This document shows positions 1 through 14,196 of a DNA stretch of 64,000 bases, in pieces. Both the position numbers and the translations under genes were made by a program. This stretch comes from an uncultured Gammaproteobacteria bacterium. Its GTDB lineage: Bacteria; Patescibacteriota; Microgenomatia; Levybacterales; UBA12049. The notes beneath the pieces are model-generated. The model had not been told where the DNA came from and did no database searches. It was given only the letters and a program-made list of their open reading frames with translations. Each line of letters starts with the position of its first letter. The first letter of the stretch is position 1. The stretch covers positions 447,555-511,554 of the forward strand of contig CAZKJM010000001.1 of the NCBI GenBank assembly GCA_964553245.1, written 5' to 3'.

Positions 1-1952
1 TAGCAAGTTGAGTTAACAGTATTTGTTCCATCTACACAGTTTTCGAAACAATAATCAGCGCCATTGCTTTCTGTCCATATCCACCAACCCAAAATTCCAA
101 TATCTACGCCAAGTTTTTCGGAGGCAATAACAGCCTGAGGCATTACTTGTTTCCATCTTTTTAAAATTTCTTCATCAAATATTTTGGGGTTTGGATTATT
201 GGGTGCTGGAAATCCGTATGACTCGAATTTTTTTTGATCAAAACTAGCGCTTGTTGTTTGTCCAGATATTGAACTTGATTGGTTTGCGTTTGATTCCAGC
301 GTCCATTTTACTGTTTTAGTAAGAGATGTGTTTGTTGTTTGGTTTCCGTTTGCGTCAAAAAGAGTTGGGTTGTTGTCTGCGCTTACAAACTCCGCATTAT
401 CGGGGATAGGATCGGTTATAGTTATTTGACTGGGGTTTCCGGAATAAGAAACATTAATTGTAAAGGTTATATCTGAATCAGCAGAGCCAGCAATTGGATT
501 TGGGACACTTTCCTTATTTACTGTTTTAGAAATGTTTACAACAGGATTTCCTCCTATACCAAGCCTTGATTGATAATCCCCAGCACCGAATATAAGAAGA
601 ATTAAGACTAATATAATTATAAAAATTATTACAGCAAGAATAACCCACCCGACAGGATTGCTTCCTAGCGCTACAGCTCCTCCTGTTCCCGCGGCTGCTG
701 TTCCGGCTCCGGCAGCTCCAGCAGCGCTGCCAGCCGCGCCTCCGCCACCAAGAAGAGATCCAAAGATTGATCCTCCGGCTTGCCCTAAAAATCCTCTCCC
801 GGCACTTCCAAACAATTGTCCTCCTAATCTAGGACCAGATTTAAATATAGATTTGCCTTTGTTAAAAAGACTATTTGCTCTATCTATGTAATTTTTGGGT
901 TGTTTAATTGAGGGGAGTCTAAAATTACCAAGTGTTTCATGATCTTCATTATTTGTCGTAGTCGTAGTGGGTGTAAAGGTGGTTGGGGCAAAATACTCAT
1001 TTTGCCTTGCCGAAGAAGAATTGCCGGATGAAGATATGTGCTCACTTAATCTAATTGAAAAACATTGAATAAAAAAAGAAGTTACTTGCTCTCTTGTTTT
1101 TATTGATCCTTTATCCCATTGACGACTCATGGGCTTTTTTAATTTTAAAAATTTTCTCCTTTCTCTTGCGCTTTGGAGTTTTTTTGCCTGTTCAATTTTT
1201 TTTAAGGTTTCGGTTAGAGCAATTGAAACCACATCTCTCTTTGGATCTTGGGCTGGAGCATTTTTTATTGCTTCAATTGCCCTCGCTTTTTCTAAAAGAT
1301 CTGACTTTTCTTTTAAAAATGCTTCGTCTACAGCAAAACGGAAATCGTGATCTTCTTTAATTTGCGCTTCGGTTTTGCCGGCATGCTTTATGCACCATTC
1401 GTCAAACACTTTTTTTTCTGTTCTTCGATATTCCTCTTGCCTTTCTTTTGGGTCCCCAGAGGTCGTGTAGTCTTCTACAACAGTTCTTTTTACAACTTTT
1501 GTAAATAGATCAGGGGCAACAGTTTTTTTTAATCTGACGTTGTATAAAAGCTCTTTTTCTAATTTTTTTATTGATTCATTAAAAAGTTCATCTTTTGTTA
1601 ATTCTTTTTTTTGTTTGCCAAAATAAACGGCGTTTTCCTTTTTGTCTTTTTTTTGCGTCAGATCGCTTGTTTTTTTGTCTTCTGTATCGCTTACCTCCAC
1701 ATGATTTGGGTTTAGGAGAACATTTTCTATGTCCGATCGGAATTTTTCGTATTCAGGATAATCAACCAAGAGCTTAAAAAGGCTATCGTGCGCTCTTTTT
1801 AAACTGTCAGGGGTTCCGAGTGAAGCGTATTTCATTATTAAACTAAATCCATCCCTTGCGGCTTGACCCTTTTCATCTTGTGGCAATGTACTTATGAATT
1901 GCTCAATCCTTTTTTGAACAAATTCCTTTGTTTGACTGTCTTGGTTACTCAT
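1..1952 (-). CDS. Edge-truncated membrane protein. N-terminal ~330 aa are charged/cytoplasmic, followed by a Gly/Ala-rich segment, one TM helix (WVILAVIIFIIILVLILLIF) and an extracellular Ser/Thr/Asn-rich region. The last residues in the window (…VIASEKLGVDIGILGWWIWTESNGADYCFENC…) may begin a peptidoglycan-hydrolase (lytic transglycosylase/VirB1-like) domain.
   Basis: Manual reverse-strand translation gives an uninterrupted frame of 650 codons from ATG at 1952..1950 to the window edge. The ORF track omits it because no stop lies in the window. Its ATG overlaps the VirB4 TGA stop (ATGA), consistent with translational coupling. The small + strand ORFs at 658-1777 are antisense to it. Confidence 0.7.
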   Translation of the reverse strand, partial: MSNQDSQTKEFVQKRIEQFISTLPQDEKGQAARDGFSLIMKYASLGTPDSLKRAHDSLFKLLVDYPEYEKFRSDIENVLLNPNHVEVSDTEDKKTSDLTQKKDKKENAVYFGKQKKELTKDELFNESIKKLEKELLYNVRLKKTVAPDLFTKVVKRTVVEDYTTSGDPKERQEEYRRTEKKVFDEWCIKHAGKTEAQIKEDHDFRFAVDEAFLKEKSDLLEKARAIEAIKNAPAQDPKRDVVSIALTETLKKIEQAKKLQSARERRKFLKLKKPMSRQWDKGSIKTREQVTSFFIQCFSIRLSEHISSSGNSSSARQNEYFAPTTFTPTTTTTNNEDHETLGNFRLPSIKQPKNYIDRANSLFNKGKSIFKSGPRLGGQLFGSAGRGFLGQAGGSIFGSLLGGGGAAGSAAGAAGAGTAAAGTGGAVALGSNPVGWVILAVIIFIIILVLILLIFGAGDYQSRLGIGGNPVVNISKTVNKESVPNPIAGSADSDITFTINVSYSGNPSQITITDPIPDNAEFVSADNNPTLFDANGNQTTNTSLTKTVKWTLESNANQSSSISGQTTSASFDQKKFESYGFPAPNNPNPKIFDEEILKRWKQVMPQAVIASEKLGVDIGILGWWIWTESNGADYCFENCVDGTNTVNSTC

Positions 1953-3877
1953 AGATTAGTTGGCGTGGTTGGGTTTCCTGTCTGTATTGGTTGTTGATCA
2001 GGAGTTATTTCCGGATTTAATTGTTGGGGAGTTTTGGCAAGCGGTGCTTCATCCGTTGGTTTTTCGCTTGATTCCGTTTCTGCCTGTTTTTGCATTTTTT
2101 CAAGCTCTTGAGGATTAGATGTAATTAGCGTGTGCTCAAAAGGAGCAGCAATTACTTTTATAGCAACGTGACTTTGTCCTGCAAAAAATAATCCTTCACC
2201 GATGTCTGCGGAAAGCAACAACTCCTTTTCTCCTTGAGAAAGATAAAATATTTGAGCAATATGGTCAATTTCGGTAGTGCTTTGCTTTAAAAGCACTTGA
2301 ATTGATGAATTGGATAAAACAGCTTTCCCGTAGTCTGTTGATAAAAAGTCCTGAACATCCTGCGTTGCTGTGGTAAGCGCAAGATAATATTTTCTTGATC
2401 TTTTGGCTATTCCATAAACAAACGAAGCTGAATCCTGATATTTCATTATGTACCAAGCTTCATCTAAGATAAGCAATCTCTTTTTAAGATTCTTTTTAAC
2501 TTTTGTCCAAACAAAGTCCAAAATTATATGCATTGCAACCGGTCTTAATTCTTCCTCCAGGGTTTTAATATTAAATACGGTAAAAGGATTCTTTATGTCA
2601 AAGTTAGATTGTTGATTAAATATGCCATTTAAGCTTCCTTTAATGAATTTTTCAAGTCTTAAGGCAAGTTCTCTTGCGGCAGGATCTTCCATTCCCAAAA
2701 GTACTTTGTATAAGTCCTCCATAAGTGGAGGTTGTTTTTTTTGAGTTGAAGGATCTGCGGTAATTCCTTTTTGTCTGTATGTTTCTACCAGAGCTCTATC
2801 AAGTATCGCGTCGTGGGCAGGATCAAGATTGCCCATAATTATTCTTAGCAAGCCGTGAAGAGATAATATTTTTAAGCCGAGTTCGTTTTCCCCTTCTTCG
2901 TAAAGACCAGAAAGATCAAAAGGATTAATTTTTACCGGCTCAGACGGAGTAAAAGAAACATGCTCCCCTCCTAATGTTTTTGTCAGCGCTTCGTATTCTC
3001 CTTCCGGATCAATAATTATTACTTCTGTGCCAAACATAAATTGTCGCATCGCTTCAAGCTTAATAAGATATGATTTTCCGGAACCTGATTTACCAAAAAC
3101 TACTTCATTTGCATTTTCCAGTGTGTATCGATCAAAAATAACTAGTGAACCGTTTTGTTCGTTGATGCCATACATTACTCCGCGATCCTGCGTTAAAGTA
3201 GCAGAGGTAAACGGAAAGGTAGAAGCAAGAGAAGTTGTGTCCATGTTTCTGGTTATGAATAATCTGTCTTGACCAATTGGAATTGTTGACTTAAACCCGT
3301 CTTCCATCTGAAGGGTAGCGGTTTTAGTAATCATCATAATGGAATTAAGTATTGAGTTTAGTCTTTTTGATGCTTCGCTAAGATCATCAAGATTATCCGA
3401 AGATAAAGTTATATACAAACTGAACTGGAAAAATCTTTCAACTCCTTTTGCAAGTTGCTCTTGTATTTCCAGTGCGTCATCAAGTGCTGCTCTTACTTTT
3501 GGATCAACAACTTTTCCCTCCTCGATTTCGGAGGAAATAGTCGCTTCCATTTCGGCAATTTTTCTTCTTAAATCTGCCAGAACATCGGAGGCAGAGGTTG
3601 GGTAAATAAACATTGATACATTCATTGAATGGTCAAAGTCAATTAAAGGCTGTAGCCAGTTTGGAGAAACATAACGTGGGTATCCTACTACAAAAAACGT
3701 ACGATAGTATAAATCTCCAACGCGGATATATTTAAAATCTACTTCAACCGATGGGGGAGCAATTACATCAACTAAAGAAACCATTCCTTTTTCAAGCTTT
3801 TTAATACCGGGACCTTTTGTGTTTTGCTGAACAGGGATTATTGGTTGTTGTTTTGTTTTCTTGCCAAATATTTTCAT
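1949..3877 (-). CDS. virB4: Type IV secretion ATPase, VirB4/TrbE/TraC family
   Basis: Walker A (VVFGKSGSGKSYLIKL) and the family-typical Walker B (LLILDEAWYIMK) are present. Length is 642 aa. Pilin and VirB6-like genes lie upstream in the same orientation. Confidence 0.85.
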   Translation of the reverse strand: MKIFGKKTKQQPIIPVQQNTKGPGIKKLEKGMVSLVDVIAPPSVEVDFKYIRVGDLYYRTFFVVGYPRYVSPNWLQPLIDFDHSMNVSMFIYPTSASDVLADLRRKIAEMEATISSEIEEGKVVDPKVRAALDDALEIQEQLAKGVERFFQFSLYITLSSDNLDDLSEASKRLNSILNSIMMITKTATLQMEDGFKSTIPIGQDRLFITRNMDTTSLASTFPFTSATLTQDRGVMYGINEQNGSLVIFDRYTLENANEVVFGKSGSGKSYLIKLEAMRQFMFGTEVIIIDPEGEYEALTKTLGGEHVSFTPSEPVKINPFDLSGLYEEGENELGLKILSLHGLLRIIMGNLDPAHDAILDRALVETYRQKGITADPSTQKKQPPLMEDLYKVLLGMEDPAARELALRLEKFIKGSLNGIFNQQSNFDIKNPFTVFNIKTLEEELRPVAMHIILDFVWTKVKKNLKKRLLILDEAWYIMKYQDSASFVYGIAKRSRKYYLALTTATQDVQDFLSTDYGKAVLSNSSIQVLLKQSTTEIDHIAQIFYLSQGEKELLLSADIGEGLFFAGQSHVAIKVIAAPFEHTLITSNPQELEKMQKQAETESSEKPTDEAPLAKTPQQLNPEITPDQQPIQTGNPTTPTNL

Positions 3878-4542
3878 TTTTCTTCCTTTCTTACAATAGC
3901 TGTTTTTATATTTTCGGTTATCTGGTTTGTTTCGATATGGGCATCGTTATAAAGCTCGTAATAAAGTTTAACCAATTCCTCTTTTTCTAGCGTTTTTGCT
4001 CCAAGGCTAAGCCTTGCGAGTTGAGCGTGAATCGTATCAAGCTTTGTATGCAAAGATGCTTTTGCCTCTTCGATAAAAGAGTTTTTCCCCGACTGTTTTT
4101 TTACCGTTGCATTTGCAGCTACGGTTGCAGCTCCTTTTTCAAGATACGAATAGGGTATGCAGATATAAAAATTTTTGTCCAGCACGATATTTACTTTAAC
4201 CAATTCCTGCACAAAATCTCTATACAATTTAATTTGACTTGCTAGCATTTCGTTTTGGGTATTTTTGGCTTCGTTGTCTAATAGTTTTAAGTATGAGCTA
4301 ATATCTAGCTTTTTACTCCTAATAATAATTTCTATTGGAAAAGAAAGTGAGTTTAGAAGCGACGCGTAGGAATATATTTTTGTATTTTGCTCTTCAAGCG
4401 ATAAAAGCGCAAAATTTGTCGCTCTAACTTCAATAATAGAACAGGCACTATTTCCGGACAGAAGAACAATATCGTCAATAATATCAATAATTTCCGTAAA
4501 TTTTTGAGTTGTTGAGTGTATTTTTTGGGCAGAATCTTTCAT
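3874..4542 (-). CDS. Hypothetical soluble protein within the T4SS-like operon
   Basis: 222-aa ORF with a 4-nt overlap to virB4 and 3 nt from the upstream gene. No TM segment or recognisable motif. Confidence 0.5.
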   Translation of the reverse strand: MKDSAQKIHSTTQKFTEIIDIIDDIVLLSGNSACSIIEVRATNFALLSLEEQNTKIYSYASLLNSLSFPIEIIIRSKKLDISSYLKLLDNEAKNTQNEMLASQIKLYRDFVQELVKVNIVLDKNFYICIPYSYLEKGAATVAANATVKKQSGKNSFIEEAKASLHTKLDTIHAQLARLSLGAKTLEKEELVKLYYELYNDAHIETNQITENIKTAIVRKEEK

Positions 4543-4545
4543 ATA

Positions 4546-5811
4546 TTAATTACCGAATAAACTTTTTCTTAATTCTTCTCGCTCATCAATAGAAATTACT
4601 TCAATCGGCAAGATTATTTCTCCGGTTGCCTGAAATTCAACAGAATCGAATCTATGTTTTTTTTCCGGATCCTCAAAGTCAATGGTGTATATGCCGTTGG
4701 ACAAAGGAGTTGCTGATGCAAATTGCCCAAGCGGGTTAGTCTTAAAAGCCCGGACTGGGTTTCCTTCCTCGTCTTTTACCTCAACTAAAATATTCGGTAG
4801 AGGATTGTTTCTTGAGTCTTTTATAATACCTGTTAAAACATTTGGAAAATCAGTAGAAATAGGAAGTCCTACGCTTTTGCCCATTTCTTTTGGAATGCTT
4901 CTAACATGTTTAGTTTGTTTTATTTGCGGCTCAGGGATCGCCATGCTTGGGGTGTAAACTTTTTTATTTTGTACCTCAAGTTTTTTTTGAAGTTCCAATA
5001 ATTGATTTTCTAATTGTTGTTTTTGAAGCATAGTTTCATTTAAGATCTTTTCAAGTTCAGTTACTTTTTGGTGCGCTGCCTCATACTCTTTGGATCCTGT
5101 TTTCTCCGAAACTTCTTTTTGCTTTGCTTCCTCAAGTTGTTTTTGAAGAATTACAGCTTCTTTCTGAAGCTCTTCTTCTTTTTCTTCCGGTTCTTCTTTA
5201 GCTTCTTTGGTTGGCATATCAACCGGTTTTGGTGGTTCCACTACAGTTTTTAAATTGTTTTTGCCAAAAATTGCAGCAAATGGATTAGGAAGAGAAAAAG
5301 AGCTGTCATCTTGCAGGGTCTTGGCTTGAATTATTGGGTTAGAAATATTATTCAAGGTTTGCAAAAATGATATTTCTTTTTCGTCCAATTTATTTTTAGG
5401 AGTTTTTGGTAGCGAGGATAAAAATGACTTGAGCTTTTCTTCCGAAATTGCGGGTTGAACAGGAGAGTGAGCCATTATTGCGCCTTGTTTTAATGTCCCA
5501 AACTCGGGAAAATAAAGATCTGCTCCGTTTTTTTGATAAACAAATTGAGTTGGGTTAAAAAGTGCCTTTGAAAAATTGCCAATCATTACATCCAATGGTC
5601 TTCCCTCTATTGGCAAAAAAGCAAAGCTTGCTCCGATTCCGGCTACTACAAGCGCAATCGGAAGTTTTATCAAAAGCAAAAACGGCATAGCAGTAATAAT
5701 CCAACCTAAAATTACGCCTGTTGCAAGATATGCAAACTGTTTGACAGTCATATTGCCGATTAGTTTAAACTGAAAGCCTGTTATATCTTGAGGAATAGGG
5801 TGATTTTCCAT
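4546..5811 (-). CDS. T4SS-associated membrane protein. The N-terminal two-TM module (VirB3/PrgI-like?) is followed by a long coiled coil (EEKEEELQKEAVILQKQLEEAKQ…) and a C-terminal beta-sandwich-like domain.
   Basis: The N-terminus (TGFQFKLIGNMTVKQFAYLATGVILGWIITAMPF…) carries two predicted TM helices and is placed immediately upstream of virB4, as VirB3/PrgI is. Coiled-coil heptads are visible. The C-terminal region (PNILVEVKDEEGNPVRAFKTNPLGQFASATPLSNGIYTIDFE) resembles a carboxypeptidase-regulatory-like/Ig-like fold. Confidence 0.45.
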   Translation of the reverse strand: MENHPIPQDITGFQFKLIGNMTVKQFAYLATGVILGWIITAMPFLLLIKLPIALVVAGIGASFAFLPIEGRPLDVMIGNFSKALFNPTQFVYQKNGADLYFPEFGTLKQGAIMAHSPVQPAISEEKLKSFLSSLPKTPKNKLDEKEISFLQTLNNISNPIIQAKTLQDDSSFSLPNPFAAIFGKNNLKTVVEPPKPVDMPTKEAKEEPEEKEEELQKEAVILQKQLEEAKQKEVSEKTGSKEYEAAHQKVTELEKILNETMLQKQQLENQLLELQKKLEVQNKKVYTPSMAIPEPQIKQTKHVRSIPKEMGKSVGLPISTDFPNVLTGIIKDSRNNPLPNILVEVKDEEGNPVRAFKTNPLGQFASATPLSNGIYTIDFEDPEKKHRFDSVEFQATGEIILPIEVISIDEREELRKSLFGN

Positions 5812-5958
5812 ATAAAACTACTGTATAACGTGAAAAATTTGCTTTCAAGATTATCAAACTAGGTCAAACAACAATTAAAATGTATCTAAAAACCGTGAAA
5901 AATGCAATATAGAAAAACAATAATAATTTATGTAATTATTTCTTTTAGAAAAAGAGGA

Positions 5959-6342
5959 TTAGGAACAGTTATTAAACCCAAAATAATTAATACATTCGGC
6001 TCCTGTTATATAGGCGATAATTTTTATTATTAAAAAAGATAAAAAGATTACCAATAAGCCGATAATTGCATAGGTTAAAGTTTTTTTTGCTTGATCAATT
6101 TTCTTTTGATCTCCGCCTGATGTTATAAAGCTGATTCCGGATAAAATAACAAAAATTAAGGCAACACTTCCCGATAAAATCAAGAGCCAATTAACAACTT
6201 GACCAAATACAACCGGAAGGCATTGAAGAGTTGCAACTCCGTCTACCATACAGTTTGACCAAGAAGCTCCGCCTGAAGTTCCTCCTGTGGAGCCGGTTCC
6301 AGGATCAGCTTTGGCGATAAGGTTAATAAAAGTTGCCAACAT
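5959..6342 (-). CDS. VirB2/TrbC-like T4SS pilin, paralogue 1
   Basis: 127 aa with two hydrophobic helices separated by the short polar loop TSGGDQKKIDQAKKTLTYA, shared with the neighbouring paralogues. It has Cys pairs near the N-terminal (SNCMVDGVATLQC) and C-terminal (AECINYFGFNNC) ends. Confidence 0.6.
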   Translation of the reverse strand: MLATFINLIAKADPGTGSTGGTSGGASWSNCMVDGVATLQCLPVVFGQVVNWLLILSGSVALIFVILSGISFITSGGDQKKIDQAKKTLTYAIIGLLVIFLSFLIIKIIAYITGAECINYFGFNNCS

Positions 6343-6386
6343 AAAGATAGATTAACAAAAGAAATATTAATTTACAATACGCTTTG

Positions 6387-6779
6387 TTATAAAGTCGGGA
6401 GTTCTAGATTATTGATGCTTGGGAGACCAAATACACTTAGTATAATGCTTATTATTAAGTAAGAAAGAAATACTACGATTAATCCAATAATAGCAGCTAC
6501 TATATGACTTCTTGCTGCTTCTACTTTTCCTTTATCTCCACCGGATGTGACCCATCTGATACCACCATATATTAAGTATCCAAGAGCAGCAACAATTGCT
6601 AATATAAATGCGGTATTAATTATTACACCGATTATTTTTCCAAAATCTCCAGCTTTAAGCTCGCATAGAGTTTGAGATATTCCTCCACCTTCGCAAAGAT
6701 TAATGGTCTCTGCAAACGCAAATGGAGCCAGTGTTAAATAGGTTGCTGCTGAGGTAATAATTCCTACAGTTTTTTTCAT
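6387..6779 (-). CDS. VirB2/TrbC-like T4SS pilin, paralogue 2
   Basis: Signal-peptide-like N-terminus (MKKTVGIITSAATYLTLAPFAFA), then TM1, loop (TSGGDKGKVEAARSH) and TM2. This is the classic VirB2 topology. Confidence 0.65.
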   Translation of the reverse strand: MKKTVGIITSAATYLTLAPFAFAETINLCEGGGISQTLCELKAGDFGKIIGVIINTAFILAIVAALGYLIYGGIRWVTSGGDKGKVEAARSHIVAAIIGLIVVFLSYLIISIILSVFGLPSINNLELPTL

Positions 6780-6824
6780 TTATAATTTAATGCTAGTATT
6801 AAATTCCTGTCTTGTCAAGTACTT

Positions 6825-7139
6825 TTATATAAAATTATTAATTCCGAATAGTCCTCCGATAATATTTACAATTAAATACGCTAATAAAACAACTACCAAC
6901 CCGGCTACGGCATAAAATAATTTTTTTCTTGCTGCTTGCAATTTTTGTTTATCGCCCTCTGATGTCATCCACTGAAATCCTCCGTAGATTAAAAAGCCTA
7001 AAGCCAGAATAATAGCAACTATATATAATATATTTACTCCGACACCGATAATTTTTTCAAGAGTACCTGCTCCACCGGTTGGAATTCCTTGTGGTCCTGT
7101 AATCTCTTGTCCTGCAATATTTAAAACGATCTCCTTCAT
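6825..7139 (-). CDS. VirB2/TrbC-like T4SS pilin, paralogue 3
   Basis: 104 aa with TM1, loop MTSEGDKQKLQAARKKL and TM2, the same motif as paralogues 1 and 2. Only 3 nt separate it from the upstream gene. Confidence 0.6.
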   Translation of the reverse strand: MKEIVLNIAGQEITGPQGIPTGGAGTLEKIIGVGVNILYIVAIILALGFLIYGGFQWMTSEGDKQKLQAARKKLFYAVAGLVVVLLAYLIVNIIGGLFGINNFI

Positions 7140-7142
7140 AAA

Positions 7143-8336
7143 TCAGCTGAATCCGGGTATTTTTAAAATATCAACACCAATTACCTGAAGTATAACAAGG
7201 GAAAAGATTATAAACAATAATCCAACAATAGCTGCTGTTAAAGACTCTTTTGCTCCCTGCATTTTTTCCGGGTTTCCTCTTGCCAAAATAATTTTGTAAC
7301 CAGATAGAATGATTAAGATTAATGCAATTCCCCCGGAAAGACTTAAAAGGACACCGAATAAAGATTTAATAAAAGACGCTGCATCTGTTCCTAATGTTAT
7401 TCCAAGCCCAGTATCTATGGATAAACATTTTCCGCCATCTCCCAACTCTGAACAATGCGCAGTAATCGGAGGAAGATTATCAAAAAGGTTATCAATAAAT
7501 ACTTTCCCCTCATTGCTTTCTTCTCCTAAAACATTTAGAACGATCCAGTCTTTATTATTGCCTTCAAAAACATATATAGTTTGATCTCCAATTGCCTTAT
7601 CTGGAACCTTAAGTTCTATTTTACATTCAGGCTCATCTAGACATTGCCTTAAATTGTCCGATCCGCCCTGGAACCTGTATTTATAAGTCCCGCTTTTGTT
7701 GTTATGGATTGTCAATGTAACTGTCTCTCCAGGATTTGCTTTTGAAGGATCGATTGACAACGTGAATGGAGCATTATGTTCTTGATCTAAATAAAAAGTT
7801 CTATAGGTCTCGACATGTTCTTTTTGTTTATTGGTTGCATAAAGTCTATAGACAGCGCCTCCTGTTCCAAAAATATCAAATTTTTCCACTTTAAATTGCG
7901 CTTTAATTTTCCAATTTTTCCCCCCATCATTACTAAAACAAGATTGTTGAACAAATGATGATCCTTGATGAGATAGGTCGCATGTTGAAGACTTTCTGTT
8001 AATTTTATACTCCAATTTCCATTCATGTTTTGAAGATTTAAAAACATTACTGGTTGATTCATTCTCTACCAAAATTAAGAGTTGATATTCTTCATCTGGT
8101 TTTGGCGCTGGTAATTGTCCCCCTCTTGAGTAATAAAGTGTTGTTTGAGTTTGAGCAGTGCTTACTTCTCCCCAAATAGCATCAGAAATATCTAGTTCAA
8201 CGTTTATAATGTCACCGTTTTTTACATTAGTTTTATCAATCGTTAGCGCAACTCCGCTTGCATGAACAGGGTTTTTAAAAAACAGGAAAAAAATTAAGAT
8301 TAAGATTGAAAATAGAATTCTTTTCAGGACAGGCAT
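7143..8336 (-). CDS. Pilin-fusion protein. After a signal peptide, a ~300-aa extracellular domain is fused to a C-terminal VirB2-like pilin module.
   Basis: The N-terminal signal is MPVLKRILFSILILIFFLFFKNPVHA. The Cys-containing extracellular region is beta-rich. The C-terminal 70 aa (…ILSGYKIILARGNPEKMQGAKESLTAAIVGLLFIIFSLVILQ…) repeat the TM-loop-TM motif of the three small pilins. Confidence 0.55.
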   Translation of the reverse strand: MPVLKRILFSILILIFFLFFKNPVHASGVALTIDKTNVKNGDIINVELDISDAIWGEVSTAQTQTTLYYSRGGQLPAPKPDEEYQLLILVENESTSNVFKSSKHEWKLEYKINRKSSTCDLSHQGSSFVQQSCFSNDGGKNWKIKAQFKVEKFDIFGTGGAVYRLYATNKQKEHVETYRTFYLDQEHNAPFTLSIDPSKANPGETVTLTIHNNKSGTYKYRFQGGSDNLRQCLDEPECKIELKVPDKAIGDQTIYVFEGNNKDWIVLNVLGEESNEGKVFIDNLFDNLPPITAHCSELGDGGKCLSIDTGLGITLGTDAASFIKSLFGVLLSLSGGIALILIILSGYKIILARGNPEKMQGAKESLTAAIVGLLFIIFSLVILQVIGVDILKIPGFS

Positions 8337-8374
8337 AATTAAATCGTAATTTAAAAAGTCTGTAAAAGCAAGTT

Positions 8375-9793
8375 TTAAGAAGTAAATTTAAGTCCCCGGC
8401 CTTTTACTGTTTGAAGATGCTTTGGATTATTTGGGTCATCTTCGATTTTTTTTCTGACCCGAAAAATAAGTTGATCCAAAGCCTGATCAGTTACTCCCGC
8501 TGTTGTTTGAGTATCCTTCCAAACAGCAGAAATTATTTCGTTTCTTTCTAAAATTTTTTCATGACTATCGATTAAAAATTTTAATAATCTAAATTCAAGA
8601 GTAGTGAGAGCATCGGATAAAACAATCTCACCTTTTTTAACTTGGTTTGTATTTTGATCGTAAATTATTTTATCCGAGGCGATTTTTATAAGCGCATTAT
8701 TTTTATCAAGAAACATTTCGAGTAGAGGAATTGAAATTTTCCCATTTTTTATTAAACCTATTTTTTCAAGTAGGTTAAGCTGTTCAAGATTAATCTTTTT
8801 AGCCATAGACTTTTGCTCAAACGGCGTTAAAAAACTCCAGATCTCAAAAAGACAGGCTTTAATTTGTTTTCTTTCTATTAAAAAATCAGCAATATTTTCT
8901 TTTGGAAAATCAGAGCTTGTTACAATTTCTGTAGCAAGTCTCGTAAGCTTACTGTGTCCTCCGGTAAGGCTAATTAATTTTTCAATTAATTCTTTTTTAA
9001 TTTTTTTACCCGAGACCTTTTCCAAATACGAAATTCTAAAATCCAGCCCGATTTTGTCTTTAATATTTAAATAGACAATTTTATCAGCAATAAATTCGTA
9101 AAACTGGTTTAATATTTCGGTAATTAAGGTTTCTTCAAGCGGTCTTGTCAGTGAAAATATTGAGGCAAAACGGTATTTAGCTTTATTTCTTAAAATTCTA
9201 AGATTTGCAAAAAACTCGCTTGAAATAACCGGGATGTACTCATCGAAACGATCAAATAAAAAAATAATCGACAATTTTTTTTCGATAGACAAGCAATCAA
9301 AAGCTTCTTTTAAACCCTGAAAAAGAACAAGTTCGTCGTTTAAGCTAAGATGTTCCTTAAAAATACGGTGAATTTCCCTATGTTCATTGATTAACTCTCT
9401 GTCTCTTAATGAATCGGCAAGAGACAAAAAAATATATTTATTTACGTCAAAAAGCGATCGGTTTTTAACCTCGGAAAAATTCATATAAACAAAATGAACA
9501 TTTTTTTGATTTTCTCCCAAATGCTTAACGCGGATTTTGTGATTATAGGCAAGCATCCTTAACAGATTTGATTTACCTGATCCAGGAAGACCAATTAATT
9601 GGCAGGAATTTCCCTCTTTTAGAAAATCTAAAATTTTCTGTATTTCTTCAAAACGGGAATCCTCAGGATAAAGGGATTCAAAATGAGTAAAACCATTATT
9701 GTTTGATTGTTTCATTGCAACACTATGGTAATTGTAAGTTTTTTGTAAGGAAAATATCAAGTTTAATAAGTTCTTAAGGATTAAAATCGCCAT
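8375..9793 (-). CDS. Transcriptional regulator with an N-terminal P-loop NTPase (AAA/STAND-like) fused to a C-terminal OmpR/PhoB-type winged helix
   Basis: Walker A is LIGLPGSGKSNLLRML. The C-terminus matches the trans_reg_C pattern (LTTLEFRLLKFLIDSHEKILERNEIISAVW…ALDQLIFRVRKKI…LQTVKGRGLKF). The annotated start at 9793 lies 4 bp from the divergent ORF start at 9797, so the internal Met at 9715 is a possible alternative start. Confidence 0.65.
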   Translation of the reverse strand: MAILILKNLLNLIFSLQKTYNYHSVAMKQSNNNGFTHFESLYPEDSRFEEIQKILDFLKEGNSCQLIGLPGSGKSNLLRMLAYNHKIRVKHLGENQKNVHFVYMNFSEVKNRSLFDVNKYIFLSLADSLRDRELINEHREIHRIFKEHLSLNDELVLFQGLKEAFDCLSIEKKLSIIFLFDRFDEYIPVISSEFFANLRILRNKAKYRFASIFSLTRPLEETLITEILNQFYEFIADKIVYLNIKDKIGLDFRISYLEKVSGKKIKKELIEKLISLTGGHSKLTRLATEIVTSSDFPKENIADFLIERKQIKACLFEIWSFLTPFEQKSMAKKINLEQLNLLEKIGLIKNGKISIPLLEMFLDKNNALIKIASDKIIYDQNTNQVKKGEIVLSDALTTLEFRLLKFLIDSHEKILERNEIISAVWKDTQTTAGVTDQALDQLIFRVRKKIEDDPNNPKHLQTVKGRGLKFTS

Positions 9794-9796
9794 AAT

Positions 9797-12499
9797 ATGA
9801 CAAAAGAATTTGAATTCCAGAAATTGACAAGCGAAGTTAATTTTTCTACACTCAAAGGTAGAAAGGTTATTTTTATGGAGAACTCAGAAACACCAAGGCC
9901 ACCTGAAGATAAGGGAATGGGTAAGAATGTGTTAGGCGGAGAAAATCCTGCTTCTTCAGAAGCTTCTGGAGTTAACGAAACAAGTGAACAAAGAGGAGAA
10001 GAGCTTCAAAGAAATCTTGCAAGGCTTGGTATAGGAAGCGAAGAGTTTGGAGATATTTCAGAAGAAGAGAGGTTGATGGCTCAAAGAGCACAACAAGAGT
10101 TTATAAGACAAGCAAGGGAGGGTCTTAGAGACAACATTTCCCCGCAGGAAAAACTAAAAAAAGAAGAAGAAAAAATCCTTAGCTTAGGATCAAGAGAAGA
10201 TCTTGATAAATTTTTAGTTTCAAAAGACAAGAATCTTTTGTTTTATCTTCTAGACGCAAAAAGATTAATAGAGAAAGGCGATTTTGCAATAGAAGACGAA
10301 AGAGCAAAGGAAAACTTTTTAAACGAATTAAATGAACTCATTGCGATGTCAAAAGGGGACAAATCAATAGTGGACGTCGATGATTATAAAAGAAGGGTTT
10401 CTGAAATTATTCATGGCAAAACTGATGCGGCTGGTAAAGAAAGCCTCGGCTTAATAGATTTATGTAAAAAACGCGAGCCCAGAGAAATGCACGGCGAAAT
10501 GCCTAAATGCCTTGAAGATCTTGCCGAATTAATCATGAGCTCGGAGGAAGATAAGTGGAGAAAAGACGGAGAAAGAGCGCTTATTAACGAAGAGGGAAGT
10601 GTAAATACGGAAAATTTATTAGCTTGGTTCAGGGACAGAATTATGTGGTTTCATGATTTTAATCCTGATTCGGAGATAAATTTGTTTAATCAAATCTCCG
10701 TGCCAACGCTGTACAGAACCTACTCATTTTCGGAAATGCTTGATAACAAAAGATATTTCTTAAAAAGAACAAAAAGGTTAGGAGAAGGAGAGTACGAACA
10801 TCATAGAAGCGAAGAATATGAAAAATTAAAAGACCATTTGCTTTACGAAGTTTGGTTGTTTAACACCTCGCATAATTATGACGTAAAATACCGCACTGTT
10901 ATGGGAATTGAATCTAAGGTTCCGGAGGTTTTAACAGAAATGTATTACACTAACGTTTTTACTAAGGATAGGAATAGACTTCTCAAGATTTTAAAGCTTC
11001 CTAAAATTGATCAGATAGAAGTAGGAAAGATTGTTAAGTCTAAAAATGGCGAGCAAGAAGGACAGGGAACAGTTGGAAGAGTCGTCAGAAGAGCTCTTCT
11101 TGCCTATTATTATCTTCCGGAGTTGGTTGCAGAAGATGATCAATTAGTAAATGGTGGGAATATGTTTGAAAAGTCACTCGGAGAAAATGGCTCGCTTGAA
11201 TTTTACGCTTCCCTTGTAAAACAGCTTGGTGGAGAAGTCCTAGACACAGGATCAATGGGTTTTAGAGACGCCAGAAATATTTTAAGAGAAAGAATAGCTG
11301 ATTTACTAGATAAAAAATATGGTCATAAATTTACCCAGCTAAATATTTTTGATGACGTAAATAAAGATAGAACGGTACTGCGTCTTATAAGAACTGCCTT
11401 AAGGGATGCGATTGCAAAGGTGGAAGGATTAGCAGATAAAAAAGGAAATCCGGACGAAAACGTTATCTATGGAGAGAACTGGGCAAATACAATGATTTAC
11501 TGGACAGGAATTTCTGCAAAAAACGATACTAATGCAATTGGTTTTGACGCGTGGACAAAAATAATGAGCGCAAAAGATTATAGAGTAAGACAAGCAGGAG
11601 CAAGAGGAATTTTTGGAGAAATGTACAATATTTATGGTTTAACAAGAATCGGATTAAATTTTTGGGAAGGAATTAAAGTAAGAAGAGAAGGAGACAGGGG
11701 TTTTAACTGCAATGTTTTGGAGGTTTTACAGGGTGGTCAAGGAAACGATATTAATCTTGATCGCGGAATAAGCGATTTTGATTTTCAGGATAATGCTCAA
11801 AGACAATTTGCGGCAAATCATATAAGAAATGCTTTTAGTTTTTTTGAATTTGTAATGAAAAAACACGGAATGAATTTTGACCAATTTTTATCTGTTGACG
11901 TATTCGGGAGAATAATTTTTGATCCAGGGAAAGCAGACGAAGTGTTTGATAAATTATGGAGCAAAGGACTTCGTTATACTTTTGATTTGCCGGATTTTTT
12001 TTGGGATCATGAGGTACGTGGTTGGTGGAGAGATAAAGATAAGGATGGTGAGGAGTGCGTATATTTTGGCTCAAAAAAACTAAGGGATTTAATGTTTAAC
12101 GAAGAACTAAATAATATGGGAATGTACGACAGAGAAAGATTTAAAGATCAAAAGAGTAAATTAGCAGCTCGCAATGTTTTTGCATACCTTATTGCTAAAG
12201 AATTATATGCGCATAGAGCATTTGATTCCAGATATAAAAGATACAGCGCAGAACAAATAATGGTAATAGAATCATATTTAAGAGGATACCCATTAGAAAT
12301 TGAAGAAACAGAAGGACACGAGGTTAAAATAAAAGATTACTTTTTCTCAAAAGAGGAATGGGAGCATGTTACAAAAATTTCTCATACACAATATAGTAAG
12401 ATGTTTATGGAAAATCTTGCGTTAACTGGAACCCAAGGAGCAATAGGCGGAGCCTTTTCAGGCATAAAACATTTTATTAAGGAACTAGTAAAATTCTAA
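9797..12499 (+). CDS. Hypothetical 900-aa soluble protein with no recognisable domain, embedded in the T4SS-like locus
   Basis: Long uninterrupted ORF with good coding character, no TM segments, an acidic/charged N-terminal ~250 aa and a Trp/Phe/Tyr-rich core. It is divergent from the regulator gene and convergent with the VirB6-like gene, overlapping it by 4 nt. The start may be a downstream Met (M26 or M41). Confidence 0.6.
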   Translation: MTKEFEFQKLTSEVNFSTLKGRKVIFMENSETPRPPEDKGMGKNVLGGENPASSEASGVNETSEQRGEELQRNLARLGIGSEEFGDISEEERLMAQRAQQEFIRQAREGLRDNISPQEKLKKEEEKILSLGSREDLDKFLVSKDKNLLFYLLDAKRLIEKGDFAIEDERAKENFLNELNELIAMSKGDKSIVDVDDYKRRVSEIIHGKTDAAGKESLGLIDLCKKREPREMHGEMPKCLEDLAELIMSSEEDKWRKDGERALINEEGSVNTENLLAWFRDRIMWFHDFNPDSEINLFNQISVPTLYRTYSFSEMLDNKRYFLKRTKRLGEGEYEHHRSEEYEKLKDHLLYEVWLFNTSHNYDVKYRTVMGIESKVPEVLTEMYYTNVFTKDRNRLLKILKLPKIDQIEVGKIVKSKNGEQEGQGTVGRVVRRALLAYYYLPELVAEDDQLVNGGNMFEKSLGENGSLEFYASLVKQLGGEVLDTGSMGFRDARNILRERIADLLDKKYGHKFTQLNIFDDVNKDRTVLRLIRTALRDAIAKVEGLADKKGNPDENVIYGENWANTMIYWTGISAKNDTNAIGFDAWTKIMSAKDYRVRQAGARGIFGEMYNIYGLTRIGLNFWEGIKVRREGDRGFNCNVLEVLQGGQGNDINLDRGISDFDFQDNAQRQFAANHIRNAFSFFEFVMKKHGMNFDQFLSVDVFGRIIFDPGKADEVFDKLWSKGLRYTFDLPDFFWDHEVRGWWRDKDKDGEECVYFGSKKLRDLMFNEELNNMGMYDRERFKDQKSKLAARNVFAYLIAKELYAHRAFDSRYKRYSAEQIMVIESYLRGYPLEIEETEGHEVKIKDYFFSKEEWEHVTKISHTQYSKMFMENLALTGTQGAIGGAFSGIKHFIKELVKF

Positions 12500-14196
12500 G
12501 ATTGTTTCCCCCAAGCCTTTTCTCCCCCAAGCCATTGTTTAGTGCCATCGGCCAATCGTTGTGCGATCTTAGAATTTTTATGGTTATCGGCATATTTTTG
12601 CGTAAGTCTAATAGGTAAGCTCCTAATAGGACCCGCTCCTCTAGTATAATCAGCAGGTCTTGTCAGTTGTTTCCAGCCGTAACCAGTTGGTTTTCCCAGC
12701 GTTGATGTTCCAACATGGAAGGCTTGACCGATTGGAGCCATCTCAAACTTTGGAGCCTTAAGCATTTTCTCTACCATAGTTGCAACATTCGGAGTTAATA
12801 AAATTATCCCCAGTCCTACAACTGCAGCTAATTGATCTGCATTTCCAACGTTACCTACCAACGGTGGGGTAAAAAAAGTATTTGCGCCGGTTGATTGAAT
12901 TGCATCTATAAAAACTTTTCCGAGCAAAAGCATGGCTACTACAGTAGGAAAAACAATTAACTTAGAGCCTATGCTTCTTAACCAGGAACCAAAACCGCGT
13001 TCGCTTCCCATAAACGGAATTATTCCTATAACAATAAATAAAGGGGACAGTACTATGTCTATGAGTATCCCAACATAAGTGAGCAAAAGCTTAAACCATA
13101 ACCTAAACATAGCAAAAGTTATAGCAACGGCAATAATTAAGAATGCAATTAGTTGACCAAGTCCTGCTAAAACCTTTTCTGCAAATCCAGCAGCAGTTAC
13201 AGCCCCTGCAATTCCACCGATAATACTACCGATAATTGGTATAGCAGATCCAGCAGCTACTCCTGCAGCAACAGACCCAGCCATCATAAGCATACCAAGT
13301 ATTCCTTGAAGTATTTTACCTGGACCAGTTTCGAGCATTGATTGTATAAATGTTCCTATGGCACCCGCAGCTTGCCATGACATACTAACGAAGTTTACAT
13401 TTTTATCGAAATAAATTGGAGCTTGATAATTTACTTGGTTTGCTATTTCAAGTTTAATTTGGGGATCAGCATTTGCAAACAAGTTTATTATTAAATATGT
13501 CGCAACCCACATTAAGTCTATTAGGAATCCGGCAATTGCAAACGAAAAAGTTACTAAAATGATTCCGATAATCATTTTAGGAATTTGATTTTGAATAGTC
13601 ATTACGGTACGCGGATCAATTTTTACACGTAACATTATTGCAAGTCCAACAAGAATAAAAACAAGCACAAAAACTATATAAATCATATTTCTAAAAGCAG
13701 CCCACGCGTTCATTAGTGGATTTAATTGTTGAAAACCGGTTGTTTGTGCAAGCGCTGGTTTTGCAATCCCAAAATTCTGAGCTAGATAATTTACATATTC
13801 AAAACTATGCGCAGGAATATTAAAAGTCATTGTAATCAAATTGTTTAAAACACCGATTACTCCTCCTCCGCCAATTTGTCCGGGTTCTGCAGCGGGTACG
13901 AATCCGATTTTTCCGGTTTTTGGATCTACGCCCAAGCATTGATGATTTTGACTGATTGGGTCATATCCGGTTAACTGACAAGCAACAGTTGCCATTAATT
14001 CTATAAACACATTTTGAGTATAGGTGTGCAGGTTTTGGGGAACATCGGGATTATTTACGGGAGCGGTGTAGCTATTCTGAGCAAAGGAAGATTTACTTAA
14101 GTTAAATAAGAAAATCAGTACAAGAAAAAAAACGGTTATTAACCGGGCAGCGAATCTCATTAATATTAGTTTGAAGTATTTTAATTGGTGTGTCAA
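12496..14196 (-). CDS. Polytopic membrane protein, VirB6/TrbL-like T4SS inner-membrane component
   Basis: A signal-like N-terminus (MRFAARLITVFFLVLIFLFNLSKSSFA, alternative start 14160) precedes a ~130-aa extracytoplasmic region. This is followed by at least six hydrophobic helices with Gly/Ala-rich stretches, as in TrbL/VirB6. Genomic context is the VirB4/pilin locus. Confidence 0.5.
   Translation of the reverse strand: MTHQLKYFKLILMRFAARLITVFFLVLIFLFNLSKSSFAQNSYTAPVNNPDVPQNLHTYTQNVFIELMATVACQLTGYDPISQNHQCLGVDPKTGKIGFVPAAEPGQIGGGGVIGVLNNLITMTFNIPAHSFEYVNYLAQNFGIAKPALAQTTGFQQLNPLMNAWAAFRNMIYIVFVLVFILVGLAIMLRVKIDPRTVMTIQNQIPKMIIGIILVTFSFAIAGFLIDLMWVATYLIINLFANADPQIKLEIANQVNYQAPIYFDKNVNFVSMSWQAAGAIGTFIQSMLETGPGKILQGILGMLMMAGSVAAGVAAGSAIPIIGSIIGGIAGAVTAAGFAEKVLAGLGQLIAFLIIAVAITFAMFRLWFKLLLTYVGILIDIVLSPLFIVIGIIPFMGSERGFGSWLRSIGSKLIVFPTVVAMLLLGKVFIDAIQSTGANTFFTPPLVGNVGNADQLAAVVGLGIILLTPNVATMVEKMLKAPKFEMAPIGQAFHVGTSTLGKPTGYGWKQLTRPADYTRGAGPIRSLPIRLTQKYADNHKNSKIAQRLADGTKQWLGGEKAWGKQS

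Follow-up and report, generated by a model that had tools for sequence, protein, structure and literature searches.

A four-gene pilin cassette with an ectodomain-fused member in the type IV secretion system locus of a Levybacteria-like Patescibacterium

Bioinformatic and comparative genomic analyses of a 64,000-nucleotide stretch of DNA (contig CAZKJM010000001.1 of assembly GCA_964553245.1, positions 447,555 to 511,554; hereafter the window) identified four adjacent open reading frames (ORFs) on the minus strand that encode type IV secretion system (T4SS) pilins, one of which is fused to a large ectodomain with predicted immunoglobulin (Ig)-like folds. The best explanation of these genes is that they form the pilin cassette of a chromosomal T4SS of the monoderm type (PrgI/TraC-like/VirB4), and that the DNA comes from a Levybacteria-like member of the Patescibacteria (candidate phyla radiation, CPR; Microgenomatia). 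The best-matching loci belong to Candidatus Levybacteria/Levyibacteriota, in the Patescibacteria class Microgenomatia, and the G+C content of the window is ~34%. On balance, we favor a reading in which the four subunit types build a heteromeric T4SS pilus or stalk whose long subunit displays an Ig-like host-binding head, and we regard the long pilin as a credible candidate for the host-recognition element of a Patescibacteria T4SS. A more specific version is put forward only tentatively, namely that Levybacteria-type bacteria possess a heteromeric VirB2-type pilus of four dedicated classes, including an adhesin-pilin with a swappable Ig-like head that would set which host cell is attached or injected. 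The four pilin genes are:

7143-8336, minus strand: long pilin, 397 amino acids (PF18895, 35.1 bits)
6825-7139, minus strand: short pilin of class A, 104 amino acids (PF18895, 37.9 bits; TrbC, PF04956, E-value 0.038)
6387-6779, minus strand: short pilin of class B, 130 amino acids (PF18895, 31.0 bits; class consensus and orthology)
5959-6342, minus strand: short pilin of class C, 127 amino acids as called (PF18895, 41.4 bits)

Pilin modules and architecture of the long pilin

All four proteins score above the gathering cutoff of the T4SS_pilin family (PF18895; 26.6 bits), with E-values (E) of 1e-7 to 1e-10. An initial annotation, made from the sequence alone, had described four ORFs with a shared transmembrane (TM)-loop-TM module in 5959-8336, and its coordinates and ORF lengths proved exact. 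Hydropathy analysis placed two TM segments, separated by a short charged loop, in each of the four modules, and an additional N-terminal signal-peptide-like segment in the 397 and 130 amino acid proteins. When aligned, as the annotation had suggested, the modules showed 36-40% identity with 15 invariant columns. The loop consensus that it had proposed roughly fits the three short proteins (ITSGGDQKK, VTSGGDKGK, and MTSEGDKQK), but not the long one, whose loop reads ILARGNPEKMQGAKESL (ILARGNPEK), unlike the TSGGDK loop of the short pilins.

The comparative set consisted of 85 sequences, corresponding to 84 related loci and the first 30 kb of the window, in which ORFs were called and our own hidden Markov models (HMMs) were run. 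PF18895 was matched by each of 85 short pilins scanned one by one (the three of the window plus orthologues from related loci) and by 120 of 120 long homologues. The TrbC/VirB2 family (PF04956; gathering cutoff 27.9 bits) was weakly matched by two of the four window proteins, over the correct part of the profile, and by 26 of the 85 short pilins (E ≤ 0.1; best E 7.8e-8), while CagC, the VirB2 homologue of Helicobacter, was matched by 5 of the 85. These profile matches are in line with the VirB2-like assignment made initially, and support a relationship to TrbC/VirB2 at the superfamily level, with membership in PF18895 and not in canonical TrbC/VirB2. No further pilin module was detected in the 64-kb window, bar a weak match inside a 566 amino acid polytopic membrane protein, and PDB sequence searches with profiles of the long-type module and of the 85 short pilins returned nothing meaningful.

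The long pilin comprises four parts, delimited with the help of an AlphaFold2 (AF2) model (22-sequence alignment; mean predicted local distance difference test score, pLDDT, 72.8):

8259-8336, minus strand: Sec-type signal peptide, residues 1-26, MPVLKRILFSILILIFFLFFKNPVHA then SGV (hydropathy peak at 2-20 followed by V-H-A; AF2 helix 3-20)
7776-8258, minus strand: distal Ig-like beta-sandwich Ig1, ~residues 27-187, with Cys119/Cys133 (AF2 strands 29-184)
7467-7775, minus strand: Ig-like beta-sandwich Ig2, ~residues 188-290, with Cys232/Cys238, followed by a linker (AF2 strands 192-283)
7146-7466, minus strand: "long-type" pilin module, residues 291-397, with a Cys295-x8-Cys304 beta-hairpin and a VirB2-like helical hairpin (PF18895 at residues 322-386)

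The predicted leader ends in the cleavage context …NPVHA↓SGV, and an N-terminus resembling a signal peptide was found by a simple pattern in 95 of the 120 long homologues. The N-terminal region is predicted to be all-beta, with pLDDT mostly of 75-90 in the Ig1 block and disordered loops at residues 53-76 and 94-102. In most homologues the linker is Pro-rich (PPPPC) and ends in an invariant Cys ahead of the module. The module itself is modeled with TM1 at ~319-351, the loop RGNPEK, and TM2 at ~356-390 as helices (pLDDT ~80-85). Altogether the protein has six cysteines (119, 133, 232, 238, 295, and 304), and its mature form of ~40 kDa is far beyond the ~7-10 kDa of canonical TrbC/VirB2 pilins. 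The signal-peptide-bearing, Cys-containing, beta-rich domain described in the initial annotation is borne out by these features. The structural search that it had proposed for adhesin-like folds recovered the beta-sandwich ectodomain but no adhesin family: Foldseek of the model against the PDB retrieved solely generic tandem Ig/fibronectin type III (FnIII) proteins (LILRB, KIR, Fab, and Vibrio RbmA). A few homologues carry Pfam-recognizable fn3, CarboxypepD_reg, or PKD ectodomains instead.

It had been recognized from the start that the 397 amino acid ORF could be an assembly or frameshift artefact merging the gene of a secreted protein with a pilin gene, a possibility that we now consider vanishingly small. 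The identical 397 amino acid protein is present on three contigs (collection sources: NCBI, JGI, Logan, and ENA). A profile of the C-terminal module retrieved 713 representatives of 50%-identity protein clusters at E ≤ 1e-30, 6,417 at E ≤ 1e-10, and 36,742 at E ≤ 1e-3; nearly all of the best 150 of the 713 are proteins of 142-820 amino acids with the module at the extreme C-terminus. The same position was found in nearly all of the best 120 of 422 database homologues (227-689 amino acids), some of the long homologues being already named "pilin" by NCBI. Furthermore, a scan with one genome per species confirmed relatives of the long-type module in 163 stretches, and the ORFs carrying the module are long in the 80 loci kept. 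Since this architecture recurs in hundreds of protein clusters, the frameshift reading is refuted. The initial remark that fused VirB2 pilins are not standard holds in comparison with characterized T4SSs, whereas in Levybacteria-type loci the fusion is the rule.

Position-specific pilin classes and a hypervariable ectodomain

The order candidate regulator, long pilin, A, B, C, PrgI, TraC-like, VirB4 is kept in the large majority of ~80 related loci, and the synteny of PrgI, TraC-like, and VirB4 with the pilins in the ~40 loci of sufficient length to show it. Within this arrangement, 53 loci have exactly three short pilins, and some have 3 to 5. The three positions of these 53 loci correspond to distinct classes:

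Class A, position 1: typically ~110 amino acids, no leader, no Cys
Class B, position 2: typically ~139 amino acids, Sec leader, Cx9C ahead of TM1
Class C, position 3: typically ~107 amino acids, often starting M-x-W-x-x-C, four invariant or nearly invariant Cys, two per terminus

The class A protein of the window has neither a signal peptide nor Cys, carries the loop MTSEGDKQKLQAARKK, and starts 3 nt past the stop codon of the long pilin. Among its position-1 orthologues, an N-terminus resembling a signal peptide was found in 4 of 53 loci and a Cys loop in none of the 53. The class B protein has a Sec signal peptide (…APFAFA↓ETINL), a Cys29-x9-Cys39 loop ahead of TM1, and the inter-helix loop VTSGGDKGKVEAAR. 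The class C protein carries the loop ITSGGDQKKIDQAKK and four cysteines that are invariant or almost invariant, namely Cys31/Cys41 ahead of TM1 and Cys117/Cys126 in its C-terminal tail. Thus, a Cys-x8-9-Cys loop precedes TM1 in classes B and C as in the long pilin, and the leader is of the Sec type in the long pilin and class B, absent in class A, and variable in class C. Most class C orthologues begin at M-x-W-x-x-C, and the first ~27 residues of the window protein may be a degenerate leader. An AF2 model of class C, from an alignment of database homologues, is a helical hairpin (42-74/79-113) for which Foldseek found no match in the PDB under E 1.8. Both of its Cys pairs, ahead of TM1 and in the C-terminal tail, lie on the extracytoplasmic side. 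They could join the two termini by disulfides, a possible analogue of the head-to-tail cyclization of TrbC/TrhA.

In 154 of 159 cases, the best BLAST match of a short pilin in another of the 53 loci occupied the corresponding place in the array, and the long-A-B-C order recurs in ~50 Levybacteria-type loci. The recurring order and the position-specific orthology argue against recent duplicates; the four genes look like old position-specific classes. Recent tandem duplication or an antigenic-variation array was accordingly rejected as the main explanation, on the grounds of positional orthology and class signatures. The class-specific leaders and cysteines, taken together with positional orthology, suggest complementary roles in one assembly instead of interchangeable variants, and the fixed order argues for several pilins working within a single machine, as opposed to a stock of spare variants.

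In the long pilin, the most variable part is the distal Ig1 domain. We compared the window with its closest relative (locus L085), whose T4SS core is 90-97% identical, obtaining the following amino acid identities and, in a sliding-window comparison, one cassette at the DNA level:

VirB4 95%; TraC-like 97%; PrgI 90%
pilA 90%; pilB 95%; pilC 87%; regulator 86%
Long pilin: C-terminal module 80%; Ig2 29% (E 3e-5); Ig1 undetectable
7450-8330, minus strand: hypervariable cassette

DNA identity drops to 25-50% in ~7450-8330, against 77-94% in the flanks, and recovers within the part that codes for the helical hairpin. The same contrast holds across the family: among the 120 long homologues, significant similarity links 98% of C-module pairs (~60% identity over ~100 residues) and just 6% of N-region pairs. 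Neither Ig1 nor Ig2 had a BLAST match (E < 1e-3) among the ORFs of 81 related species-level loci, and residues 27-290 (Ig1 and Ig2) searched alone against 5.8 billion proteins retrieved no homologue but the protein itself (E ≤ 0.01). For comparison, identities in the 25 closest loci are 71-85% for VirB4, with an overall median of 73.5%, and 36-73% for the short pilins. The ectodomain is a hypervariable cassette that turns over far faster than anything else in the locus. The observed pattern, a long stretch that is unalignable and contains insertions and deletions, fits recombinational replacement or intense diversifying selection. We also considered that the ectodomain could be the target of a diversity-generating retroelement, which was rejected because the divergence spans ~900 bp with many insertions and deletions, and is unalignable instead of being a short point-mutated region; no dedicated search for a reverse transcriptase was made in the window.

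Candidate pilus assembly and alternative explanations

In the heteromeric pilus or stalk that we favor, the long, A, B, and C subunits would co-assemble in one structure and not serve as interchangeable alternatives. The long subunit would be exported by Sec and its leader cleaved, and its conserved hairpin would insert into the same assembly. In conjugative pili, the termini of the subunits lie on the outer side. Solved structures of these pili show that the basic inter-helix loop faces the lumen and that the two termini are adjacent (PMC12037004). By analogy, the inter-helix loop of the present proteins would be cytoplasmic in the membrane-stored pilin and would line the lumen after assembly, with both termini outward. 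Because a VirB2-type hairpin has its N-terminus directed outward, the linker would hold the two Ig-like domains out from the outer surface. The long subunit might be a minor subunit at the tip or base, or be placed along the shaft, and its Ig-like head would supply the target-cell contact that is the role of VirB5 or PrgB in other T4SSs. Searches for a VirB5/TraC-type or PrgB adhesin gave no Pfam match at E ≤ 0.1 and no LPxTG motif; as no adhesin of these types is recognizable in the system, the ectodomain would fill its role. Fast turnover of the ectodomain is what would be expected of a part that touches the surface of a host or prey, or that is under counter-selection.

Natural fusions between modules provide Rosetta-stone support for their co-assembly. 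We found "poly-pilins", single ORFs with 3-8 tandem PF18895 hairpins (proteins P0177, P0178, P0180, and P0204). In P0180 (locus L086, 923-2374), one ORF joins an ectodomain to a long-type module and two short ones; P0177 (locus L087, 6001-8463) has eight tandem modules, and P0178 has six. Of the three contigs on which P0177 occurs, two come from different sources (JGI and ENA). The linkers of poly-pilins contain signal-peptidase-like sites of the AxA↓Q type (AHA↓Q or VYA↓Q) past each second helix, which suggests processing by signal peptidase, perhaps into monomers, and each TM2 may serve as a leader for the module that follows it. The genes after P0177 in L087 encode a 155 amino acid pilin, a 383 amino acid pilin fused to PKD, and a 718 amino acid multi-PKD protein. 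The heteropolymeric pilus or tip adhesin-like subunit suggested in the initial annotation is compatible with the paralogue classes, the hypervariable ectodomain, and the poly-pilin fusions.

Some points weigh against a heteromeric pilus. To our knowledge, PF18895 proteins have not been seen to form filaments. Family membership, architecture, synteny, positional orthology, and cassette-like hypervariability are shown here; co-polymerization, the place of the long subunit in the filament, and its adhesin function are inferred from them. The window proteins stay under the PF04956 cutoff, two of them matching with 14.6 bits (E 0.038) and 13.6 bits (E 0.081) and the other two not at all. The Ig-like domains match no specific adhesin family in the Foldseek comparison with the PDB, and no ligand can be proposed. 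An ectodomain of ~28 kDa on each subunit would crowd a 5-start lattice of the VirB2 type, so that the long subunit is not easily the sole major pilin and a minor or terminal role is more plausible. Finally, the loop RGNPEK of the long pilin, as opposed to TSGGDK in the short ones, could mean a different role, such as that of an anchor or base.

The long protein could indeed be a membrane-anchored surface protein (an adhesin, receptor, or assembly factor) whose pilin-derived hairpin anchors it or docks it at the base of the T4SS channel, with only the short pilin or pilins polymerizing, which we regard as possible but unlikely. Its module forms a strongly conserved subfamily of its own with that distinct loop, nearly all loci have exactly one long copy, always first in the array, and two Ig domains on every subunit would be sterically hard to pack. 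However, ~60% identity over 100 residues, including the helices, the loop, and the Cys-bracketed hairpin, far exceeds the constraint on a simple anchor; moreover, the long module is homologous to the co-encoded pilins, and in P0180 it is followed by short pilin modules in the same polypeptide. Rather improbable in our view is that PF18895 proteins form a conduit or ring spanning the membrane and wall, with the long member as a surface-exposed cap, and no extended pilus. It is true that poly-pilins with 6-8 hairpins (12-16 TM helices) resemble a polytopic membrane assembly more than filament subunits, and that monoderm T4SSs are otherwise described as lacking pili (PMC12857230), but the signal-peptidase-like sites would allow poly-pilins to be processed to monomers, and the sequence kinship is with TrbC/VirB2 and CagC pilins. 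This alternative is mostly a question of filament length, most of its features being common to the explanation that we prefer.

The array could also consist of interchangeable major pilins that provide antigenic or host-range variation, as proposed for the virB2 paralogues of Bartonella/Anaplasma and suggested for Patescibacteria in a 2025 survey (PMC12102498). The low identity between paralogues (36-40% here and a mean of 25% in that survey) and the 3 to 5 short-pilin copies of some loci would agree with such variation. Nevertheless, orthologous classes tied to position are kept across ~50 genomes, every class is marked by a leader and cysteine pattern of its own, and the variable element is the ectodomain of a single gene, with short pilins 87-95% identical between close relatives, all of which makes variation by interchange very improbable.

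Relation to described systems and surrounding genes

Multi-pilin arrays beside virB4 have already been described for Patescibacteria T4SSs (PMC12102498, PMC10633639, and PMC12857230), and neither the array nor its VirB2-like nature is new. Quinonero-Coronel et al. 2025 (PMC12102498) applied PF18895 and PF04956 to 3,035 Patescibacteria genomes, reporting 441 arrays of 2-11 pilin genes that average 25% identity and occur particularly in Microgenomatia and Saccharimonadia; they found no adhesin of the PrgB type in the phylum. Wang et al. 2023 (PMC10633639) found the pilin series in the T4SS locus of Southlakia to be essential, and a 2025 review (PMC12857230) highlights a possible pilus in a monoderm. 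The present cassette shares with the published arrays its PF18895 membership, its place beside PrgI/VirB3 and VirB4 of a chromosomal T4SS like those of mating-pair formation type FATA (MPF-FATA) near the replication origin, and its tandem divergent paralogues, which are especially abundant in Microgenomatia. By contrast, these papers, in the passages searched, treat arrays as sets of small pilins and suggest versatility in host range. In the same passages we could find no mention of ectodomain-fused pilins, position-specific paralogue classes, or ectodomain hypervariability, and the only literature that we found naming PF18895 or T4SS_pilin was the 2025 survey and, for PF18895, a structure-clustering preprint. 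Within this searched literature, three features appear to be undescribed: the fusion of a pilin to an ectodomain, the fixed position of this protein in a cassette of four classes, and its hypervariability of the cassette type.

With the TrbC/VirB2/TraA pilins of diderms (T-, F-, H-, RP4, and R388 pili), the window proteins have in common the two-helix hairpin, the basic loop, a leader in some members, the location beside virB3/virB4 homologues, and the weak but recurrent similarity to PF04956 and CagC. Each characterized diderm pilus is a homopolymer built from a single pilin of 7-10 kDa, in many cases with stoichiometric lipid or head-to-tail cyclization, and we know of no characterized TrbC/VirB2/TraA pilin that carries a folded ectodomain. 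Here, by contrast, four classes occur in a monoderm, one of them ~40 kDa when mature, and the window proteins do not reach the PF04956 cutoff. The conjugation-like Ced/Ted pilins of archaea (PDB 8dfu and 8dft) match no better than unrelated helical hairpins do and have no ectodomain fusion. The likeness to VirB5 minor pilins or tip adhesins and to PrgB-type LPxTG adhesins concerns only the proposed role in target-cell contact; there is no homology, and the candidate adhesin would be anchored by a pilin hairpin in place of a sortase or non-covalent binding at the tip. Pam pili of CPR bacteria are likewise surface filaments with Ig-like domains in Saccharimonadia and Microgenomatia, but they rely on donor-strand exchange and chaperone-usher-like factors, and their operon lies next to ATP synthase genes (bioRxiv 10.64898/2026.03.03.709456). 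We rejected Pam pili as the explanation for the Ig-like domains, since they differ in how they assemble and in the operon that encodes them.

In the sole Patescibacterium tested genetically, epibiotic life requires the T4SS together with its pilin array, and a conserved hairpin joined to a fast-changing Ig-like head is an obvious candidate for the element in contact with the host. The long pilin offers handles for study, as a protein to seek in sheared appendages and as a domain to use as bait for host ligands, and its ectodomain sequence is a marker whose distribution could be compared with that of co-occurring host taxa in metagenomes. If the heteromeric pilus is real, no monoderm would have provided a pilus of this kind before, and it would be the first of the conjugative type to be built from several pilins. 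The ectodomain type could then be read as a marker for the host specificity of uncultured CPR bacteria. Viewing the pilins as parts of one machine also changes the reading of published arrays. It should be noted that, with the array and the VirB2 kinship already published, this advance is incremental and not categorical.

ORF calls and Pfam searches showed that the minus strand of 1-9793 is a single tight series of genes, which in addition to the pilins includes:

8375-9793, minus strand: P-loop (STAND-like) NTPase fused to an OmpR-type winged-helix domain (Trans_reg_C, 63.5 bits; NPHP3_N/nSTAND3/AAA matches)
4546-5811, minus strand: PrgI (VirB3-like) membrane protein (PF12666, 30.6 bits; PF13620, E 1.6e-5)
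3874-4542, minus strand: TraC-like T4SS protein, 222 amino acids (precomputed Pfam PF26593 on the identical or orthologous gene)
1949-3877, minus strand: VirB4-like T4SS ATPase, 642 amino acids (P-loop_TraG, 96.8 bits; DUF87; AAA_10)
1-1952, minus strand: ~1025 amino acid protein downstream of VirB4, cut by the window start (large partial ORF)

The NTPase/winged-helix protein is a candidate regulator of the pilin cassette. It was detected in 47 related loci and, where listed, immediately precedes the long pilin; the TraC-like gene was detected in 43 and, where listed, follows PrgI. A scan of 5700-9900 for promoters and terminators found sites no more frequently than in shuffled controls, and therefore provides no evidence for differential transcription in this region. 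The PrgI/VirB3-like protein is itself a fusion, with an N-terminal PrgI membrane part, an E/K-rich coiled-coil-like linker, and a C-terminal CarboxypepD_reg-like beta-sandwich, an architecture also present in the related loci L002, L004, and L085. This fusion makes it a second T4SS membrane component with an Ig-like extracellular domain.

The ~1025 amino acid protein has a Gly-rich TM segment, a "conserved repeat"-like segment, and a possible hydrolase end. In L004 (8772-13581) it is followed by a 220 amino acid Peptidase_C39_2-like protein, a 196 amino acid protein, and dnaN, which is found just past VirB4 in both L004 and L002. The T4SS locus thus adjoins the replication-origin region, as reported for Patescibacteria. 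The cumulative GC skew of the window has its minimum around 6-10 kb.

Two genes upstream of the pilin cassette, in the window as in most related loci, lies the gene of the 566 amino acid protein mentioned above (12496-14196, minus strand; 47% identical in L085), which has a signal peptide, an extracytoplasmic region of ~140 amino acids, and ~7 TM helices. Our pilin HMM weakly matches its TM hairpin at 170-229 (E 3e-7). This protein is a candidate divergent VirB6-like channel subunit, a component described as "scarce" in Microgenomatia in the 2025 survey (PMC12102498). The intervening gene (9797-12499, plus strand), which is divergent from the regulator, encodes a 900 amino acid protein with no signal peptide, kept in position in many loci in versions of 942-1248 amino acids. 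It is just 33% identical in L085, although the T4SS core is so similar there, and is thus a second fast-evolving gene in this region, possibly encoding a T4SS substrate or effector. Pfam searches up to E 10 gave no useful family match for these two neighbors.

In L004, which comes from another assembly and has the identical long pilin, the 900 amino acid gene upstream of the regulator is replaced by that of a 121 amino acid 23S_rRNA_IVP protein (bAvd-like four-helix bundle; 569-934), a strain-level rearrangement beside the cassette. L002 (6228-6608) and L003 also have a 23S_rRNA_IVP/bAvd-like gene near the regulator, in addition to the 900 amino acid gene. On the other side of the pilins, L085 has an extra ORF (9195-10616, minus strand) between pilin C and PrgI, on the opposite strand to these genes, which encodes a 473 amino acid acidic low-complexity protein; the window has just a 147-nt spacer (5812-5958) at this place.

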